Source: a virus (taxonomy: Duplodnaviria; Heunggongvirae; Uroviricota; Caudoviricetes). Taken from it: a stretch of DNA of 40,587 nucleotides. The notes below the pieces were generated by a model that was not told where the DNA came from, made no database searches, and saw only the letters and a list, made by a program, of their open reading frames with translations. The translations under genes and the position numbers were made by a program. Shown here piece after piece: positions 2,399-34,448 of this stretch (its first letter is position 1; each line of letters begins with the position of its first letter). Location: positions 1-40,587 of IMG/VR virus record IMGVR_UViG_2563366988_000007; one strand, written 5' to 3'.

Positions 2399-2696
2399 GT
2401 TTAGACCTCGATACTTTAAAAATTTGAACGACGTTACCGCGCGTTTTAATAACCGCAGCCAGCATGACAGCGTTGATAATGACCTCAGATAAATCCACAG
2501 CCATTGGCGTACGTAACCAGATTGCATAGGCGACTCGAACAGGAATACTGGCCGCAGCAACAATCAGGAAATAAGCAAGCCATCCTCCCCACCTTCGATG
2601 TTGAGAGCCGTTACGCCGGAATGTGACAACGCGAATTGCTATGCCAGTGCAAATAACTGCATTGGTGATAAGCAAAAAAAACTCATGCGTTACCAT
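2388..2696 (-). CDS. Small membrane protein of lysis cassette (holin/antiholin-like)
   Basis: Two to three predicted TM segments; position between holin and endolysin. Confidence 0.45.
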
Positions 2697-3087
2697 CGTC
2701 TTTTCTCCCCGGAATTAACTCGCGTGGATTATCGGAACGGTGATAGAGCCATATACCAATACGCACAGCGACAATTGCTGACACGAATGCGCCTGCAGAG
2801 AAAACAATCCCTTTTTCAAAAGAGTCCTGCGTGATGGTAGGGATCAGGCTGGCTATGCCGATAAGAATTGATGCTGCTGGTTTGTAAAAGAGAAGGCCGC
2901 AAAGAAAGCTGAGCATCGACAGGAGCACCCGGCGACGGATGGGGTACTCTACTGCAGAGGTAACAAAAATTACCGCCCCAGCCAAAGCCCCTAAAGCAAC
3001 CTCCGGAGGGACACCTGCAATAACCGCAGCAAGAGAACCAAAACTAAGCAACTGATTTAATTGCTCACTTGTTACTTGAGCAGACAT
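2683..3087 (-). CDS. Holin-like membrane protein
   Basis: Multiple hydrophobic helices, charged C-terminus, first gene of lysis cassette. Confidence 0.5.
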   Translation of the reverse strand: MSAQVTSEQLNQLLSFGSLAAVIAGVPPEVALGALAGAVIFVTSAVEYPIRRRVLLSMLSFLCGLLFYKPAASILIGIASLIPTITQDSFEKGIVFSAGAFVSAIVAVRIGIWLYHRSDNPRELIPGRKDDGNA

Positions 3088-3367
3088 ACTTTCTCCTGTT
3101 TACTATCTATAAGCCAGTCAATTATTGATGACTAAACCCGCATAGTAAACCATATATGAATCATTATTGTTCCATATCATATATCTCAATAAAAGTACTA
3201 ATGATTTTACAGAACGAGCCAGCAGAGTGGGGGCAGTTGTACAGGAACCATAGACTTAATTTTGTATTTAATAATGCTATGGTGTAATAAACCTGAACAT
3301 GTATTTAAAATACGTACTGATTCATGATAGAATTCAAAGATAACTTTTCACAAACTCCGTTTTTGAT

Positions 3368-3395
3368 ACCCGCAAAATATTGCGGGCTTTTTTTT
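3368..3395 (+). terminator. Intrinsic terminator oriented on + strand (stem cccgcaa/ttgcggg plus T8)
   Basis: acccgcaaaatattgcgggctttttttt; T-tract only on + side. Confidence 0.45.
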
Positions 3396-6300
3396 AACGT
3401 TCTTCCAGAGACTGAATCCGCTCTTTTATCTTATCCATTTCTCTGCGCTGCCATGCTGCCTCGATATAGAATAAGAGATCAGGTCTGACCCCCCATCTAG
3501 ATCCTGCTGGCGTTATTTCAACGCGCTCAATGATGTCTTCTATTACCATCACTGGATTATCATCCTCATCAACAATGATGCTCCCGTCATTATCAGTCAG
3601 CGGCATTTCCCTTTGGCCAGTAATGACGTCATCATATACTGCGGGATAATCGTCATAGCAAAGAAAGGCATAGCGGCATGTTGTGCTTTCTTCTTCCATG
3701 AGTCCGTGAGAAATAAGAACATCACGAAGTTGCTGCGCGATTACACCATGATGTATCCTCGCCCCTTCTTCCCCCTTTATAGCGACAGCGTTCAGCCATT
3801 TATAAGCGATATACCTGACGTCACCCCAGGCATCCAGCAATGCTTCGTCAGGAGAGACCGGCTCTGTCTTTAATGTTCCGTCACTGGTAACCACAGGATT
3901 GGAGCCAAGATAAACTGTCGAGAACCTGTTTCCCGGACCACCAAGAGCATTTACATTATCAAGATAAGGTTTAACATCTCCGTTCTCAAAAAGATGTTCG
4001 AGTGCGTTATATACCGCGCGACGTGGAGTACTGCTTCCGGAACCATGCAACGTTATCATTGCACCATCTGCTGAAGACGTTGTTTCACCGCCGCTAACGA
4101 TTAATCTCTGAGCGGTAACATCATCAGACGGTACTTTCTTCGCAATAATGGCGTAATTACCCTCAAGTTTGACTTCCGCGCGAACTTGTCCTGATGTACC
4201 TGCATGGACAGTCAGTGACTGGACGGCAACATCATCTGTGAAATCAACGGGTACAGGAACCGTCCTCACGCCTGACGTCGACATAAAAGTAGGAAGCGTT
4301 CTGTTAGGAGTGGCTCCGTAGACAAAATCCCTTGAAACAAATTCTTCCTGTTTAATTTTCACCCTGAAACAATACAAATCAGCCGGGTGACCATCGTGAA
4401 CATAAGGATATTTTCTGTTGTTATCCCCTATGCTCCATGGGTTTAGAAAGTCTTCCCCACCGAAAATGTAGTACAGCCAGTTGTCTTTGATACAAACTGA
4501 ACCAACACCAACCGCAGAGTTAACTATTCCGCCCTGATAAATCTGATCAGTAACATTAACCCACTCTACATTATCCAGACTCCACTCATTGACGTTAACT
4601 CTGGTCATAAATGTTCTTGGATAATTTCCTGCATAACGGTTATCAGGTTCTCCTCCTTCCCACTCACCAAATGCGCGCTCACTGCCAAAAATAATCAGCT
4701 CATCGCCAACTTTGGCAAAAGGAAGGTTTGAGTGATGAACATTATTTGGGAAGCGAAGAGAATTCCATGATGTACCTAAATCAGAGCTTCTGTGCAATGA
4801 ACTACCGGGTTGAGTACTTAATGTCCCCCTGGTCGTCAGATACAGAATGCCATCATAATATTTTACACATGGCTCAGATGCATTCGCCTCATATTCTACA
4901 GGTATGCGTCTGCGAACAAAGCTACCAGGAGAACCGAAAGCATCAGAGAAATAGAGTATCCCAAGCTCGCGTGGACCAATATCACCATTATGGTAGCCAA
5001 CAGCAAAACTGTTATCGCTAATCGTCGCAAAACTGTGAATCTCAGTAACAGGAGTGCTTCCGTCAACAAAAGAAGGAATAGTTCCAAGACTGGTTTTTCT
5101 CCATGGTGACGAGTGAAATGATGTACCAAAACTCCAGTATCTACCCTCGTTATTCTGATCCACATCCTGGGTATTTTGCGTCGTAACTGTAAAAGTATTT
5201 TTATCAATAACAGTAGTCACCGTCATATTCCCGGTAACACCTGTAACACCAGAGTTTGAGAAGTTGACAAAATCACCAGCAAATAATCCGTGATCAGTAA
5301 TGCGAATATAAGCGACTTGCTGATTTGCTGCTTTCGTTATACCACCATAAACGCGAAGGCTGCGACTCATTGGGCGATCCCACAACTCTGCAACCTGCAG
5401 TTTATTTCCGCTCACGGTCCGCGTCTCAATTACAGCAAAAAGGCGATTTCTGACAACCCCCATACTCATGCAGTGATAGTTAACTGTGGGATAGTTTTCA
5501 TGTAAATCTGTAAGCCATTCCGGCGTTGTCCAGGTCTTCCCGTCATCTCCTGAGCGAACCCATGCAACATGGAGGTTATTTACACCATGGCGGTCTCCAG
5601 CCATAAAAGGCGCATAGATGACATTGTCATATACAAACGTTTTATCCTGCGTCCAGGCGTTGTACCACGGTGTATCTGTAATTTTAAATAACTCTCCCTG
5701 GATAAAATCTTCAGAAGCATAAAAAAGAGGCTGGCCCGGTATTCTCTCAAATAAAAAACGAGCATTTTTAAATCGACTGACATCCGGAAGAGTTGATACT
5801 TTAAAAGTAAGCCCTAATCCGTCAATTTTATAACCTGGAGATGAGGCTTCAAGGCACGCGCTTATTGCAGTGGAATCGTCATTTATACCATCACCAACAG
5901 CTCCAAAATCTTTGGGGCTAATAGCATCACGCATTTTATCCTGGAACGTTCGGTACACAGCCCCAGAACCATACTGAATAAACCAACCAAAACCACCAAC
6001 AACCCCGGCGATTGCAGCATCGACATAATTACGCATTGAGCGATTATTTACAGCGTCCTGCTCAAATGATGGATCTGCAAGGTTAGAAATTTTGTTTTGC
6101 TTTGCATCGTAATATTTTGCAAGCAAAGATGGTTTCATCAATGCACGTCTGAACCACCCAAAACATTGCTGGATCAGCATCGTCAGGTAGTCAAAGGCAT
6201 CTTCATGCACTTCGGGGAAAAATTTTCCCTGATTGCGAAGGTCTGTCTCCTGCACTACATCAAGCACACGATCTATCGTAATTCGCCATCCAGTAGCAAG

Positions 6301-6513
6301 CGGAGACGGAAGAACCACAGAACCGCCACTATAAGTGCCCGCCCCAGTTACCGTATAACCGGTATCCAGAACCAATTCTGTTACGTTCCCGTTCAGGTCA
6401 GACACCTGAACAACCAGGTCTGATTTTCTGAAAATTCGAAAAGTATACGGAAACGATGTCGTAACGCCGTTACCGGTGTATTCGTTGTGGTCAACTTCGG
6501 TTGAGACCGTCAT
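3394..6513 (-). CDS. Tailspike/depolymerase: epsilon15-type N-terminal anchor, beta-helix-like central domain, C-terminal intramolecular chaperone (peptidase S74-like)
   Basis: N-term MTVSTEVDHNEYTGNGVTTSFPY; FGAVGDGINDDSTAI motif; Asp-box-like SGDDGKTW and SSDLGTSW; C-terminal SDGTLK cleavage-type motif. Confidence 0.8.
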   Translation of the reverse strand: MTVSTEVDHNEYTGNGVTTSFPYTFRIFRKSDLVVQVSDLNGNVTELVLDTGYTVTGAGTYSGGSVVLPSPLATGWRITIDRVLDVVQETDLRNQGKFFPEVHEDAFDYLTMLIQQCFGWFRRALMKPSLLAKYYDAKQNKISNLADPSFEQDAVNNRSMRNYVDAAIAGVVGGFGWFIQYGSGAVYRTFQDKMRDAISPKDFGAVGDGINDDSTAISACLEASSPGYKIDGLGLTFKVSTLPDVSRFKNARFLFERIPGQPLFYASEDFIQGELFKITDTPWYNAWTQDKTFVYDNVIYAPFMAGDRHGVNNLHVAWVRSGDDGKTWTTPEWLTDLHENYPTVNYHCMSMGVVRNRLFAVIETRTVSGNKLQVAELWDRPMSRSLRVYGGITKAANQQVAYIRITDHGLFAGDFVNFSNSGVTGVTGNMTVTTVIDKNTFTVTTQNTQDVDQNNEGRYWSFGTSFHSSPWRKTSLGTIPSFVDGSTPVTEIHSFATISDNSFAVGYHNGDIGPRELGILYFSDAFGSPGSFVRRRIPVEYEANASEPCVKYYDGILYLTTRGTLSTQPGSSLHRSSDLGTSWNSLRFPNNVHHSNLPFAKVGDELIIFGSERAFGEWEGGEPDNRYAGNYPRTFMTRVNVNEWSLDNVEWVNVTDQIYQGGIVNSAVGVGSVCIKDNWLYYIFGGEDFLNPWSIGDNNRKYPYVHDGHPADLYCFRVKIKQEEFVSRDFVYGATPNRTLPTFMSTSGVRTVPVPVDFTDDVAVQSLTVHAGTSGQVRAEVKLEGNYAIIAKKVPSDDVTAQRLIVSGGETTSSADGAMITLHGSGSSTPRRAVYNALEHLFENGDVKPYLDNVNALGGPGNRFSTVYLGSNPVVTSDGTLKTEPVSPDEALLDAWGDVRYIAYKWLNAVAIKGEEGARIHHGVIAQQLRDVLISHGLMEEESTTCRYAFLCYDDYPAVYDDVITGQREMPLTDNDGSIIVDEDDNPVMVIEDIIERVEITPAGSRWGVRPDLLFYIEAAWQRREMDKIKERIQSLEER

Positions 6514-6617
6514 GTTAAATCTCCAGATAGTCGCAGCACCCGTTGCGCCGCATATCTGGTTATTCTATTACCTGTAAAACCACATATGGATAGAAAGGCT
6601 GTAAATACGAATAGATA

Positions 6618-6632
6618 TTACCTTTCAGGTAA
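6618..6632. promoter_or_regulatory. Operator-like palindrome TTACC-N5-GGTAA (ttacctttcaggtaa)
   Basis: Perfect 5+5 inverted repeat; identical 15-mer at 25228. Confidence 0.5.
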
Positions 6633-6708: not shown

Positions 6709-6966
6709 ATGCAGCAGTATCACTATCCACTGGAAGACGGATTTACCGAAAGGATTCACACGCCGGGAGGCGTCAGGTCACTGGTGGAGGGATCGCACTT
6801 GATGAAATTACTCCGGGATCTCGATAAGGATGGATTTAATGTCGATGGCCCACTTGCCGAACTGACTGCACTGATTAACTACGTCACCAGCTCACAGATG
6901 TCTATGCGGGATCTGCAAACACATCTCGACTATTGTGCCGAACAATTACGAAAACAAACCAGATAA
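6709..6966 (+). CDS. Small SOS-regulated protein, candidate antirepressor (Tum-like logic); paralogous to C-terminal domain of adjacent Bro-N protein
   Basis: GGAG SD 8 nt upstream of ATG; LexA box in promoter; shared motifs HTPGGV/HSPSGV, AEL, RDLQTH/RDIQTH with 7282-7977 C-terminus. Confidence 0.55.
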   Translation: MQQYHYPLEDGFTERIHTPGGVRSLVEGSHLMKLLRDLDKDGFNVDGPLAELTALINYVTSSQMSMRDLQTHLDYCAEQLRKQTR

Positions 6967-7104
6967 GGTTTGCAATTACCAAGTGGAGTGCTTATATTTA
7001 CCTTTGAGATAAATTTACATCGCACTCCTCTTGTGCCATAGTAATCGGGCACTGGCAAAATCCAGTGCCGGGATTGGCGTCCCGGATTACTAAAAGGCGC
7101 ATTC

Positions 7105-7124
7105 ACCGCGCAAGCGGTTTTTTT
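7105..7124 (+). terminator. Intrinsic terminator (accgc-gcaa-gcggt plus T7)
   Basis: caccgcgcaagcggttttttt. Confidence 0.5.
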
Positions 7125-7281
7125 ATGCGTATAGCACGGCCACATTCGTATTATGGTGGGCTGTGTGGGGGCACCGAAAGGTGCGCCGGGTCCTTTTAGC
7201 CGGTTACGCCAACCCTGCACAGTTCACCACCAACCGATTGGCGTCGGTAGTGGTGATTAACCAGACTAAAAGGTAACCACT

Positions 7282-7977
7282 ATGACAGCTACAAAAAGCA
7301 CGTCCATTTTTTCTTTCGAATCCCAAGCCGATATACGGGTAATCGTCATTAATGGTGAGCCATGGTTTATCGCTTCAGATGTTTGTCGGGCTATAGGCAT
7401 AGCAAACCATCGAGATGCTGTTCGAAAACTTGATGATGATGAGAAGGGCGTCGCTTCAACCGACACCCCTGGCGGTGAGCAAGAATCGATCATCATCTCC
7501 GAGTCAGGCCTCTACACACTGATCCTCCGCTGCCGCGACGCAGTGACACCAGGCACTATCCCCTACCGCTTTCGTAAATGGGTTACAGGTGAGGTTCTTC
7601 CTCAGATCCGCCGCACCGGAAGCTACATTAAAAACTCGCTCCCGCAGGAAGAACGCATAAAGATGGTTGCCGACCAGGTAGCCAACGCCACGGCGTCAGC
7701 AGTAATGCAGGCGATGAAGATAGAGAACAAAACCTACAGCGCCCCGCTGAAGCCCGGCTACCGCAGCCTGATTCACTCGCCGTCTGGTGTTCTCGGCCTG
7801 ACGGAAAACTCACTGCTGATGAATCTGCTGAACCAGTTACAGGACGACGGGCACGACGTATCGGGCGCGGCGGCGGAGCTGACCACCATGTTCTGCTACA
7901 TCGTCGGTGTGAGCAAATGCCTGCGTGATATCCAGACCCACGCGGAATACATCAACGACAAGGCAGGGTTCTTCTGA
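7282..7977 (+). CDS. Antirepressor, Bro-N domain protein with C-terminal domain shared with 6709-6966
   Basis: Bro-N signature IRVIVINGEPWFIASDVCRAIGI...SESGLYTLIL; SD aaaagg. Confidence 0.75.
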   Translation: MTATKSTSIFSFESQADIRVIVINGEPWFIASDVCRAIGIANHRDAVRKLDDDEKGVASTDTPGGEQESIIISESGLYTLILRCRDAVTPGTIPYRFRKWVTGEVLPQIRRTGSYIKNSLPQEERIKMVADQVANATASAVMQAMKIENKTYSAPLKPGYRSLIHSPSGVLGLTENSLLMNLLNQLQDDGHDVSGAAAELTTMFCYIVGVSKCLRDIQTHAEYINDKAGFF

Positions 7978-16496: not shown

Positions 16497-16960
16497 TATT
16501 TTCTCTCCATGTGAAATCTGTGGAAATTAAGACCAAGAGCACCATAAGGCGCGGCTTCTTCAAGCCTGAATCCAAGCCAGTGCAGCCATGCTTTGGCAAC
16601 ATGGTTTCGCTCGTCGACGTAGTTTTCCAGGCGCGGATAAACTGCCAGCATCTGCTGCAATACAGGGCGGCAGTGGCGAAGAAATGTCTTCTGATATTTT
16701 TCGATACGGCTGGTTCCGACCAGCCAGGGCGTACCATTGCCACCGATCATTGACGCCGGAGATACGCCAAATATGGTTACCAGTTCTCCGTTCGCAAATC
16801 CTGACCAGGCCATAGTCGCAGTACGCAGACCAACACGCAGCGCATCTTCGGTAGTCATCAGTGATACCGCATACAGTTCGTCAATATCAGCCTGACGAAC
16901 ATCCGGCAAAATCATCTGAAGATGCTCTTCGGTTGCGGGAATAATTTGAACATCTATCAT
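16496..16960 (-). CDS. Virion-associated protein, unknown function
   Basis: 154-aa ORF, coupled start/stop with neighbours. Confidence 0.45.
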   Translation of the reverse strand: MIDVQIIPATEEHLQMILPDVRQADIDELYAVSLMTTEDALRVGLRTATMAWSGFANGELVTIFGVSPASMIGGNGTPWLVGTSRIEKYQKTFLRHCRPVLQQMLAVYPRLENYVDERNHVAKAWLHWLGFRLEEAAPYGALGLNFHRFHMERK

Positions 16961-22245: not shown

Positions 22246-22947
22246 TTATTTGCCATAGAGCACTTCGGCCGCACTACGCTGGCCTTCATTACCACCGGTG
22301 ACCATGCCATCTTCAGACATCGCCTTTCCGATTTTCACGAACGTTTTGACCAGATCAGGGTGATTACCCAGCCCGGTGGTGTTCAGATATTCTTTGAGTT
22401 CAGGTGTCCCGAACTGGTCAAGCGCACGCTGTGCGGCGCTAAGGTTAGAAATCAACTTGTCGCCACCGATTTCTTTGTCGGCTTTTACATCCGCAGCCCA
22501 CTGCTCGGTTGTTTTCTGCCAGGCTTCTGCCTGGCGCTGCTGAACACCTGCCAGAATCTTCGGATAAGCATCAACCAGCTTTTGCGCTTGCTCGTTGGTC
22601 AGGTTTAGTTCTCGCGCCACCGGCTCGAATTCCTTCAACGCTTCTGTATCCAGCTCTACGCCTTCGGCAGCCTGAAACTCGTACTTTTCAGGCGCACCCT
22701 CTGGTTTATCGCCGTCCTTTTTTTCATCCTGCTTATCGTTTTCAGGCTTTTTGTCATCAGCAGGTTTATCGCCATCAGCAACAGGTTGTGGCTTATCACC
22801 TTCCTGTTGTGATGGATCACCAACTGGAGCAGGGTTATCACCTGCAGGCGCTGACGGTTCTGACGCAGCCGGAGCTGCTCCACCATCGACTGGTTGCTCA
22901 TTGCAAATACGGCGATACAGCAAACGCTCAAATAAATTCATGATCAC
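22246..22947 (-). CDS. Scaffolding protein
   Basis: 233 aa, acidic, Pro/Ala/Glu-rich low-complexity middle, helical C-terminus, between portal and capsid. Confidence 0.5.
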   Translation of the reverse strand: MIMNLFERLLYRRICNEQPVDGGAAPAASEPSAPAGDNPAPVGDPSQQEGDKPQPVADGDKPADDKKPENDKQDEKKDGDKPEGAPEKYEFQAAEGVELDTEALKEFEPVARELNLTNEQAQKLVDAYPKILAGVQQRQAEAWQKTTEQWAADVKADKEIGGDKLISNLSAAQRALDQFGTPELKEYLNTTGLGNHPDLVKTFVKIGKAMSEDGMVTGGNEGQRSAAEVLYGK

Positions 22948-23240
22948 TCCTGTTCACTGGCCTCTTTGGCCATCTTCAAATACTGTTCAGGGCAATGCGC
23001 CATAACGCGCTGAAACAGTTCCAGCGCCAGATTGCGTTGCCCCTCATTAAATGCCATTGCCATAGCGTCCATCGGTGAGATAGCGGAAAACACACGGCCT
23101 TTCTCCAGCACCGACCAGACAACGCGACGCCCCTGTTCACTGCTCATGACAAAGCGAATGTCATCAATTTCACGCTGCGCCATGTCACGTTGCTTACGGG
23201 CGTTTTCTTCTTTCAGTTGATCGTCTTCGTAATCTGTCAT
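22944..23240 (-). CDS. Small head-morphogenesis protein
   Basis: 98-aa ORF, overlapping stop/start with portal and scaffold. Confidence 0.45.
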   Translation of the reverse strand: MTDYEDDQLKEENARKQRDMAQREIDDIRFVMSSEQGRRVVWSVLEKGRVFSAISPMDAMAMAFNEGQRNLALELFQRVMAHCPEQYLKMAKEASEQE

Positions 23241-25137: not shown

Positions 25138-25227
25138 ATCAATGACTCCGTACGCAATTAAATTATTACCAATTTAACCACATATGATTTATTTATCGTA
25201 GAAGGTTGACATTTAACGCGTTAATTA

Positions 25228-25242
25228 TTACCTTTCAGGTAA
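25228..25242. promoter_or_regulatory. Operator-like palindrome TTACC-N5-GGTAA (ttacctttcaggtaa) preceded by TTGACA
   Basis: Identical to 6618 site; TTGACA at 25206-25211. Confidence 0.5.
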
Positions 25243-25564: not shown

Positions 25565-25641
25565 GTGGCATTAGCTCAGTTGGACAGAGCAACCGCCTTC
25601 TAAGCGGTTGGTCGCAGGTTCGAATCCTGCATGCCACGCCA
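25565..25641 (+). tRNA. tRNA-Arg, anticodon UCU
   Basis: Cloverleaf folded by hand: acceptor GTGGCAT/ATGCCAC, D-arm GCTC/GAGC, anticodon stem ACCGC/GCGGT with loop CTTCTAA, T-arm GCAGG-TTCGAAT-CCTGC, discriminator G, encoded CCA. Confidence 0.85.
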
Positions 25642-25804: not shown

Positions 25805-25828
25805 GCCCGGTTCGCCGGGCATTTTTTT
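25805..25828 (+). terminator. Hairpin with UUCG tetraloop (gcccgg-ttcg-ccgggc) followed by T7
   Basis: Read directly; abuts SD of gp49-like gene. Confidence 0.4.
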
Positions 25829-34368: not shown

Positions 34369-34448
34369 GGTAAGCCCTGTTATTAGTATTGGGATTACGG
34401 TCATTTTGTGCTGACACAAAAAAAAGATCAACCAGATTTGGTTTTTTA

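Follow-up and report, generated by a model that had tools for sequence, protein, structure and literature searches.

In phage ε15, a hairpin after the tailspike gene is followed by the serotype-conversion genes gp21 (O-antigen ligase-family) and gp22 (α-polymerase inhibitor), which are located on the opposite strand and converge on the tailspike gene. In phiV10 (oac) and Tyrion (O-antigen acetylase), an O-antigen acetyltransferase gene occupies the same place with the same opposite-strand, convergent orientation. TL-2011b and PAS61 hold an acetylase gene on the tailspike strand at this site, and phiv142-3 and EC.W1-9 hold small hypothetical genes. Morons, as defined for HK97 and HK022, are transcription units that are independent of their neighbours, each having a promoter and a terminator of its own and a deviant GC content (PMC3594210). 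In the prophage CUS-3, neuO, which encodes a polysialic-acid O-acetyltransferase, is found downstream of an endosialidase tailspike gene. A non-coding product is known as well: STnc6030, a prophage antisense RNA beside a tailspike gene, causes superinfection exclusion (PMC7067206). In Escherichia phage vB_EcoP_ZX5, lysogeny had no detectable host phenotype, and over-expression of the repressor abolished the holin and endolysin mRNA (PMC9782041).

Here we analysed a stretch of 40,587 nucleotides, referred to as the window, with a focus on the gap between its tailspike gene and its lysis cassette. A preliminary description had regarded this gap as the possible site of an antisense or independent small RNA, or as the remnant of a lost moron. 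Our analysis indicates that the gap is probably a cargo-less form of a hypervariable moron slot that Uetakevirus genomes have at the junction of the tailspike and lysis genes. The gap is ordinary phage architecture and not a demonstrated new RNA gene.

Prophage identity and organization of the gap

The megablast results identified the window as a prophage of K1 Escherichia coli belonging to the temperate ε15/phiV10-like podoviruses of the genus Uetakevirus. The identity to the temperate Uetakevirus vB_EcoP_ZX5 was 99.8%. The prophage is integrated beside the host genes yfgH-yfgI, which make up positions 1-1071 of the window.

Both genes flanking the gap are on the minus strand, in agreement with the preliminary description. 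On one side lies the tailspike gene (3394..6513), which encodes a K1 endosialidase of 1039 aa and, from position 3423 on, shares 99% identity with the siaK1 gene of CUS-3, a P22-like prophage. Over their last ~10 codons, the two genes are homologous but diverged (...REMDKIKERIQSLEER in the window versus ...REIERIKARLDLIEGKH in CUS-3). The divergence of these 3'-terminal codons after a 99%-identical stretch indicates a recombination breakpoint just inside the 3' end of the gene, and the final ~10 codons together with all the DNA downstream of them are specific to the lineage. On the other side lies the first lysis gene (2683..3087), which encodes a holin-like membrane protein of 134 aa (Phage_holin_8/phrog_198). 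It is the first gene of a minus-strand cassette that further comprises a holin, an endolysin and an Rz-like protein. Up to position 3112, this block shares 83-94% identity with other Uetakeviruses.

The gap is indeed AT-rich, with a GC content of 32.4% at 3088-3393 compared to 49.3% in the prophage. The neighbours have 45-52% GC, and the other regulatory spacers of this phage have 31-39%. A low GC content thus fits cargo DNA and ordinary regulatory spacers alike and does not mark a foreign origin, and base composition was dropped as such a marker. The longest ORF in the gap is not of about 17 codons, as had been stated, but of 43 codons (3156..3287, plus strand, ATG start). The earlier judgement that the gap holds no credible ORF was nevertheless borne out, as this ORF lacks a Shine-Dalgarno sequence and, at E<=10, any Pfam or PHROGs match. 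Scans of two further small ORFs, of 54 and 23 codons, against these databases gave no match either.

The gap is composite and consists of three parts, namely a lysis control region (3088-3189), a spacer (3190-3368) and a terminator (3369-3395).

A conserved control region precedes the lysis cassette

Alignment of the relatives showed that the ~100 nt preceding the first lysis gene share homology with phiV10, Tyrion, TL-2011b, phiv142-3, EC.W1-9, PAS61 and ε15, regardless of what stands further upstream. Within this region, a box at 3146..3159 on the minus strand, TCATATATGGTTTA, differs by one mismatch from the consensus CCATATATGGTTTA and lies ~60 nt upstream of the lysis ATG. The box, in the form (C/T)CATATATGGTTTA, is conserved in ε15, phiV10, Tyrion, TL-2011b and ~40 distinct IMG/VR leaders. 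A second copy, at 6576-6589, precedes the ATG of the tailspike gene by 65 nt.

The box is followed by a long 5' leader hairpin on the minus strand (3098..3150), which ends at the Shine-Dalgarno sequence AGGAG (3093-3097) of the lysis gene. The folding energy of this hairpin was -17.1 kcal/mol (z -2.0) in the window, -32.1 kcal/mol (z -5.9) in phiV10 and -35.1 kcal/mol (z -5.7) in ε15, and the window thus has the weakest version among those folded. Across 24 distinct IMG/VR leaders, 94% of the cells were paired, as opposed to 29-57% in slid controls. The covariation score was 0.30 compared to 0.13 or less in the controls, with four compensatory pairs. Furthermore, the ε15 record NC_004775 annotates the equivalent leader element as a putative RNase III site. 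The conserved leader, box and hairpin together identify the first third of the gap as a control region that serves the lysis cassette on the minus strand. This third (3088-3189) had been overlooked in the preliminary description.

On the minus strand at 3160..3189, TTGAGA-18-AATGAT is a candidate sigma-70 promoter of the lysis genes, with its -10 hexamer adjoining the box. Its position is comparable to those of candidates in L096 and L091 (two loci of the IMG/VR census described below) but is not consistent in all lineages. The idea that a sigma-70 promoter stands at one fixed place ahead of the box was rejected, because the candidate positions differ among lineages. The promoters named for this locus are predictions from consensus matches.

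A one-way terminator abuts the tailspike stop codon

The gap ends in an intrinsic terminator of the plus strand (3369..3395). A 7-bp stem with five GC pairs (CCCGCAA at 3369-3375 and TTGCGGG at 3380-3386) encloses the 4-nt loop AATA (3376-3379) and is followed by C3387 and a run of eight T (3388-3395). The last two T of the run belong to the tailspike stop codon, TAA being the complement of 3396-3394. Folded within a 57-nt plus-strand RNA, the hairpin had an energy of -12.7 kcal/mol (z = -3.2). On the minus strand, the same stem was more stable (-15.1 kcal/mol, z -3.95), but it is trailed by UAUCAAAAAC, which contains no U-tract. The stem, the T-run and the minus-strand sequence thus confirm the earlier reading of a plus-strand-only terminator made of a strong hairpin and T8.

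With strict criteria (a perfect stem of 6 bp or longer, four or more GC pairs and seven or more T in nine), eight such sites were found on both strands of the 40.6-kb window, compared to a mean of 0.12 expected from first-order Markov simulations, indicating that the terminator is not a chance match. Comparison of 20 copies from this lineage showed that the stem was unchanged in all of them. The loop was flipped as a unit from AATA to TATT in three copies, the T-run varied from T7 to T9, and one substitution, A3368G, would lengthen the stem. In vivo, the element is predicted to terminate plus-strand transcription and to permit read-through on the minus strand.

A main role of the terminator as an insulator against read-through from the host (yfgH-yfgI) or from the early-left region is unlikely. 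This role is weakened by a phage-borne bidirectional terminator that already stands beyond the lysis cassette at 1116-1135 (ZX5 7939-7958).

The interval is a hypervariable cargo slot in related phages

We carried out a census of 80 IMG/VR loci, which were retrieved through the holin-like protein. The slot between the tailspike and lysis genes ranged from 99 to 3126 nt in length, and its contents were unrelated. Opposite-strand ORFs of 259-646 aa were present in at least 11 lineages and same-strand ORFs of ~100 aa in several, and many loci had an ORF-less slot of 99-430 nt. Ten opposite-strand cargo proteins were scanned, and seven of them matched Acyl_transf_3, two with a fused SGNH domain; the other three were a DUF2142 protein, a DUF6056 protein and a lipoprotein-like protein without a family. 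The varied lengths and the acyltransferase-type cargo indicate that surface-modifying morons occupy a hypervariable site at this junction.

A GC-rich hairpin 5-40 nt past the tailspike stop codon recurs in the relatives. The hairpin sequences are unrelated and their polarity varies: the terminator is on the tailspike strand in the ε15 type, L091 and L053 and is bidirectional in L046, L093 and L096, and in L058, L080 and L064, among others, the hairpin has no T-run on either side. The layout seen in the window, TAA followed by an A-run and a GC stem, was found with unrelated stems in L046, L093, L096 and L097. In each of these four lineages, the cargo gene on the opposite strand ends 8-60 nt short of a hairpin adjoining the tailspike stop codon, and the cargo-strand T-run would thus terminate the cargo gene at that codon. 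As in the window, the terminator of L097 is directed to the opposite strand only. Alignment of the tailspike-proximal slot ends across the relatives showed no homology.

The slot is homologous across the relatives, and opposite-strand cargo in several of them ends at the same kind of hairpin. The opposite-strand cargo of the relatives and the shared TAA/A-run/hairpin design lead us to regard the gap as an empty moron slot that has kept its moron-strand terminator. Like a moron, it contains extra DNA that is differently filled in relatives, and it has its own terminator. A promoter-like site with a 9/12 consensus match and an extended -10 is present at 3304-3333, in AT-rich DNA. No encoded gene product was recognized, the longest ORF being the 43-codon frame, which has lost its start in one copy. 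Slots without an ORF can be as short as 99-153 nt in other lineages, and the ~180 nt of extra DNA in the gap count against the empty-slot reading. In the census, a strong opposite-strand terminator without an opposite-strand ORF was seen in the endosialidase lineage alone.

The spacer is restricted to one lineage

The middle part of the gap (3190..3368) is an AT-rich spacer of 32% GC at the site where the relatives carry their cargo genes. It was found only beside this endosialidase gene, in three phage records, IMG/VR contigs, six metagenome contigs and E. coli genomes. Among 5426 complete E. coli genomes, 72 contained it with 98-100% identity, and it was never annotated. It was absent from the GTDB species representatives.

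A search for a cargo relic by blastn (word size 7) and tblastx against eight annotated relatives and all 64 non-endosialidase slots returned the leader only, and the spacer showed no similarity to other slots or cargo genes at the DNA or translated level. We also searched for a sibling with the same tailspike 3' end that still bears cargo, using 'distant' blastn against phages and E. coli genomes, a protein-guided search with the tailspike C-terminus, and exact patterns of the terminator and the GC-rich island against IMG/VR, GTDB representatives and metagenomes. No such sibling was present in the collections searched, and every match had the same context. The protein-guided search revealed only two types of tailspike 3' end, the CUS-3 type and the TAA-A8-hairpin type, and the latter had the same ORF-less slot downstream every time. 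An ancestor may have carried cargo that was later lost; with no cargo-bearing sibling and only two 3' end types, however, a 'lost' cargo is indistinguishable from a slot that was 'never filled'. Of the earlier suggestion of a remnant of a lost moron, the moron part is supported by the position, strand and terminator design, whereas the remnant part is not, as no relic of the cargo itself was found.

Among the 20 copies, variable sites amounted to 5.2 per 100 nt in the gap compared to 2-3.5 in the flanking genes. The identity within the lineage is at least 98%, which is too little diversity to test for constraint.

Alternative explanations for the gap and its hairpin

The cargo of the slot might be an RNA rather than a protein, namely a plus-strand RNA of ~56 nt made in K1 lysogens; we consider this unlikely. 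Such a transcript (3340..3395, 56 nt), deduced from a promoter candidate and the terminator, would consist of a 29-nt 5' region, the terminator hairpin and U8, and would be antisense to the tailspike-lysis intercistronic RNA. The promoter candidate, which came from a consensus scan, is a weak sigma-70 match, TTTAAA-18-TGaTAGAAT (3304..3333, plus strand), with TG at -15/-14, and it lies 7 nt upstream of a plausible start. The hypothetical RNA would resemble an Hfq module, in that a U-rich stretch precedes its hairpin and U8 forms its tail. It may act in trans, as an Hfq-type RNA, or as a cis-antisense RNA to the intercistronic RNA; in the latter role, it may damp leaky lysis-gene or read-through expression or exclude superinfecting relatives, for example endosialidase phages. 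The promoter-like site with a strong U8 terminator behind it, the lysogen-expressed genes in the relatives' slot, which are on the same strand, the unique combination of terminator and missing ORF in the census, and the precedent of STnc6030 near a tailspike gene (PMC7067206) are in favour of such an RNA.

Several results argue against it. The Rfam scan that had been recommended (Rfam 15, E<=10) found no family in the gap; the best hits, Arrc14 and GcvB, had E = 2.4-2.7, far below gathering. A scan of the whole window at the gathering threshold likewise placed no family in the gap, and the known RNAs of the phage (isrK, C4 and tRNA-Arg) were detected elsewhere. The promoter hexamers were unchanged in the 20 copies, which is uninformative since these are near-identical, and the 5 of 15 promoter-like matches from the 4 kb scanned that fall in the gap are as expected from AT-richness alone. 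The body of the hypothetical RNA is polymorphic, with A/C at 3352 in a ratio of 11:9 and A>G at 3338. Complementarity within the phage was at chance level with a longest match of 10-11 nt, and the best duplex (-21.8 kcal/mol) was inside the shuffled range. Taking Hfq-type sRNAs as a working analogy, we thus found neither a conserved seed nor target complementarity within the phage. In addition, the plus-strand fold upstream of the terminator was not better than shuffles (z -0.7 to -1.8), and ZX5 lysogeny conferred no phenotype (PMC9782041).

Alternatively, the main use of the hairpin may be on the minus strand, where it would be a 3' stabiliser, a pause site or a processing site of the tailspike mRNA, and the T8 run would be a by-product of an A-run behind the TAA. 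The higher stability of the stem on that strand, the T-run-less GC hairpins of L058, L080 and L064, and the use of this position for a tailspike-strand terminator in ε15 and others are compatible with such a function. We nevertheless consider it quite unlikely, as the TAA/A-run/stem layout recurs with unrelated stems in four lineages, exactly where an opposite-strand gene needs a terminator, and a stabiliser alone requires no A-run. Homopolymer runs are mutable, and yet this one was kept at 7-9 in all copies, which also counts against such a function.

A functionless recombination scar, in which the spacer and the hairpin are flanking DNA brought in with a swap of the endosialidase module, is improbable. 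The gap does lie between two mosaic blocks (the lysis block up to 3112 and the CUS-3-like endosialidase from 3423), the spacer has no homolog outside the lineage, and the density of variable sites in the gap exceeds that of the flanking genes. However, a terminator of this quality is expected only ~0.1 times per 81 kb and is found here exactly at the convergent junction, its stem stays the same in copies that differ in loop and tail, and function and conservation are clear for the third of the gap nearest the lysis genes.

A small protein gene at 3156..3287 is highly improbable: this ORF is the longest in the gap and has an ATG start on the moron strand upstream of the terminator, but it lacks a ribosome-binding site and a family match, its ATG sits within the conserved palindromic box of the lysis leader and is destroyed (G3158A) in 1 of 20 copies, and its product is neither hydrophobic nor signal-like.

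A proposed model for transcription through the slot

An empty moron slot remains our preferred reading, and the surrounding elements suggest how it may be transcribed. An operator-like palindrome, TTACCTGAAAGGTAA (TTACC-N5-GGTAA), precedes the tailspike gene at 6618-6632. The window contains 22 sites of this palindrome compared to 3.2 expected, clustered in the immunity region, and its counterpart in the ε15 record is labelled as a repressor site. Tailspike transcription would start in this region, which also holds the second copy of the box. Many relatives have another module of palindrome and box ahead of the lysis cassette and, between the two units, a terminator on the tailspike strand. 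The gap contains no TTACC-N5-GGTAA palindrome, and no minus-strand (gene-strand) terminator follows the tailspike gene in this lineage, which is consistent with co-transcription of the tailspike and lysis genes.

Since the stem is not followed by a U-tract on the minus strand, tailspike transcription could continue through the slot into the lysis genes. The lysis genes would thus be read through from the tailspike gene, possibly aided by the candidate promoter at 3189->3160, and the leader hairpin would form in the read-through RNA. On the plus strand, RNA polymerase would be halted by the one-way terminator at the tailspike stop codon, and antisense transcription into the tailspike gene would thereby be avoided. 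The palindrome does not correlate perfectly with terminator polarity, as a gene-strand terminator without a recognisable operator is present in L091 and L093, and the read-through model is thus one that we infer. The effect of the ZX5 repressor on the lysis mRNA fits this model, and the lack of a phenotype in ZX5 lysogens fits a slot without a conversion gene, although neither observation is decisive.

Significance and comparison with known systems

The main value of these results lies in annotation, as the gap holds a conserved lysis control region and a one-way terminator. The ε15-like tailspike-lysis junction can be regarded as a defined hypervariable cargo site with surface-modification genes and recurrent convergent-terminator designs. 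Knowledge of the slot aids in finding conversion genes in prophages, and the slot offers a natural insertion site with a built-in terminator for phage engineering. An empty slot would also explain why the K1 endosialidase lineage, unlike CUS-3, carries no capsule-modifying gene. A small plus-strand RNA, if true, would be a modest addition to the prophage regulatory RNAs.

Compared with the prophage RNAs STnc6030 of BTP1, isrK and C4, the candidate unit is similarly short and non-coding, is located opposite late genes near the tailspike gene and has an intrinsic terminator, but it has no family match and no conserved seed. Furthermore, STnc6030 is ~786 nt long and overlaps coding sequence, as opposed to the intercistronic 56 nt of the candidate RNA. 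The siaK1-neuO arrangement of CUS-3 shares the endosialidase with the window and has a receptor-modifying gene directly downstream of the tailspike gene. However, neuO is on the tailspike strand and has no counterpart in the window, and the homology to CUS-3 ends ~30 nt before the stop codon. The gap has no ORF, in contrast to the morons of HK97 and HK022, but like them it lies between conserved late-gene modules and has a strong terminator. It is also AT-rich relative to its neighbours, as are other regulatory spacers of this phage, and has a promoter-like site by consensus match.

The cargo sites of ε15 (gp21/gp22) and of phiV10/Tyrion (Oac) correspond to the window in slot, strand and convergence, with the conserved lysis leader on the other side and a hairpin at the tailspike stop codon. 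The window differs from them in having no gene in the slot and no operator-like palindrome between the cargo start and the leader, and the T-run of the hairpin is on the tailspike strand in ε15 and on the cargo strand in the window. L097 has an unrelated stem and a slot of 1244 nt compared to 306 nt in the window, filled by a lipoprotein-like ORF of 321 aa that ends 60 nt before the hairpin. The two junctions nevertheless share the same design, with TAA, an A-run, a 7-bp GC stem, a T-run on the opposite strand only and a leader that is not preceded by an operator palindrome.

Slots and terminators around the lysis cassette

Slots between the lysis cassette and the tailspike gene without an ORF were also found in other tailspike lineages of the IMG/VR census, with lengths of 406 nt (L064-L075), 428 nt (L079/L081), 257 nt (L076/L077) and 325 nt (L083) and unrelated sequences. 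Sizeable slots without cargo, 250-430 nt long, are thus a common feature of the ε15-like phage group.

The gap terminator (3369-3395, plus strand) was compared among 20 near-identical lineage copies. Its loop (3376, 3379) changed from AATA to TATT in 3 of the 20, inverted as a unit with the palindromic stem remaining the same. This is a hairpin "flip" polymorphism, and it was linked to T3417C in the tailspike gene. The Rz-like gene and the attachment site flank another intrinsic terminator, a bidirectional one at 1116-1135, which consists of A6 and an 8-bp stem, then TTTTGTT on the plus strand and TTTTTTAT on the minus strand. This terminator is phage-borne, and the temperate Uetakevirus vB_EcoP_ZX5 (ZX5) has a loop variant of it.

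Evidence for exchange of the endosialidase gene, and its disruption in one copy

The tailspike gene (3394..6513, minus strand) was 99% identical to siaK1 of CUS-3, a P22-like K1 prophage, from 3423 on, and the identity dropped abruptly beyond this point; the last ~10 codons were diverged yet homologous. The abrupt drop together with the diverged terminal codons indicates that P22-like and ε15-like K1 prophages have recently exchanged the body of the endosialidase gene; the breakpoint (3423) falls inside the C-terminal chaperone domain. In the prophage of E. coli 23CRST038 (L025; NZ_AP045810.1, locus 4065-5278), the endosialidase gene was interrupted by an IS3-family transposase; its gap and lysis cassette were intact.

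Known RNAs elsewhere in the window

Rfam matches above gathering were obtained on the plus strand for the isrK Hfq-binding RNA (7049-7124, 77.9 bits) and the C4 antisense RNA (7149-7234, 77.7 bits). The two RNAs are located immediately 5' of the ash/antirepressor genes, and together with these genes they form a P1/P7-type antirepressor control module. A tRNA-Arg(tct) is encoded at 25565-25641 on the plus strand, opposite to the structural genes. Near it are a terminator satisfying the strict definition (perfect stem of at least 6 bp, at least 4 GC pairs, at least 7 T in 9) at 25805-25820 on the plus strand, and a palindrome-plus-box pair at 25174-25242. The tRNA position corresponds to ~23,000 in ZX5, whose record annotates a hypothetical protein there (22861..23067) and no tRNA.

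Conserved box and over-represented palindrome

The box CCATAT(A/G)TGGTTT was observed ~60-65 nt 5' of both the tailspike ATG (6576-6589, minus strand) and the lysis-cassette ATG (3146-3159, minus strand), with weaker copies at 25174-25191, 16763-16780, 34428-34445 and 6955-6972. The window contains 13 matches at up to three mismatches, compared with 2.9 expected. It is possibly a marker of where late units under repressor control begin, acting either as a DNA site or as the 5' end of the RNA.

The palindrome TTACC-N5-GGTAA was strongly over-represented in the window (22 sites at up to one mismatch, 3.2 expected), with perfect copies at 6618-6632, 8050, 25228, 28391, 32448, 32510, 34786, 34834, 35546 and 35608. 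Its sites cluster in the immunity region, and one sits 28 nt upstream of the tailspike-side box. The lysis leader is preceded by this palindrome in many relatives, whereas in the window's lineage it is absent there. In ε15, the equivalent palindrome is annotated as a repressor site.
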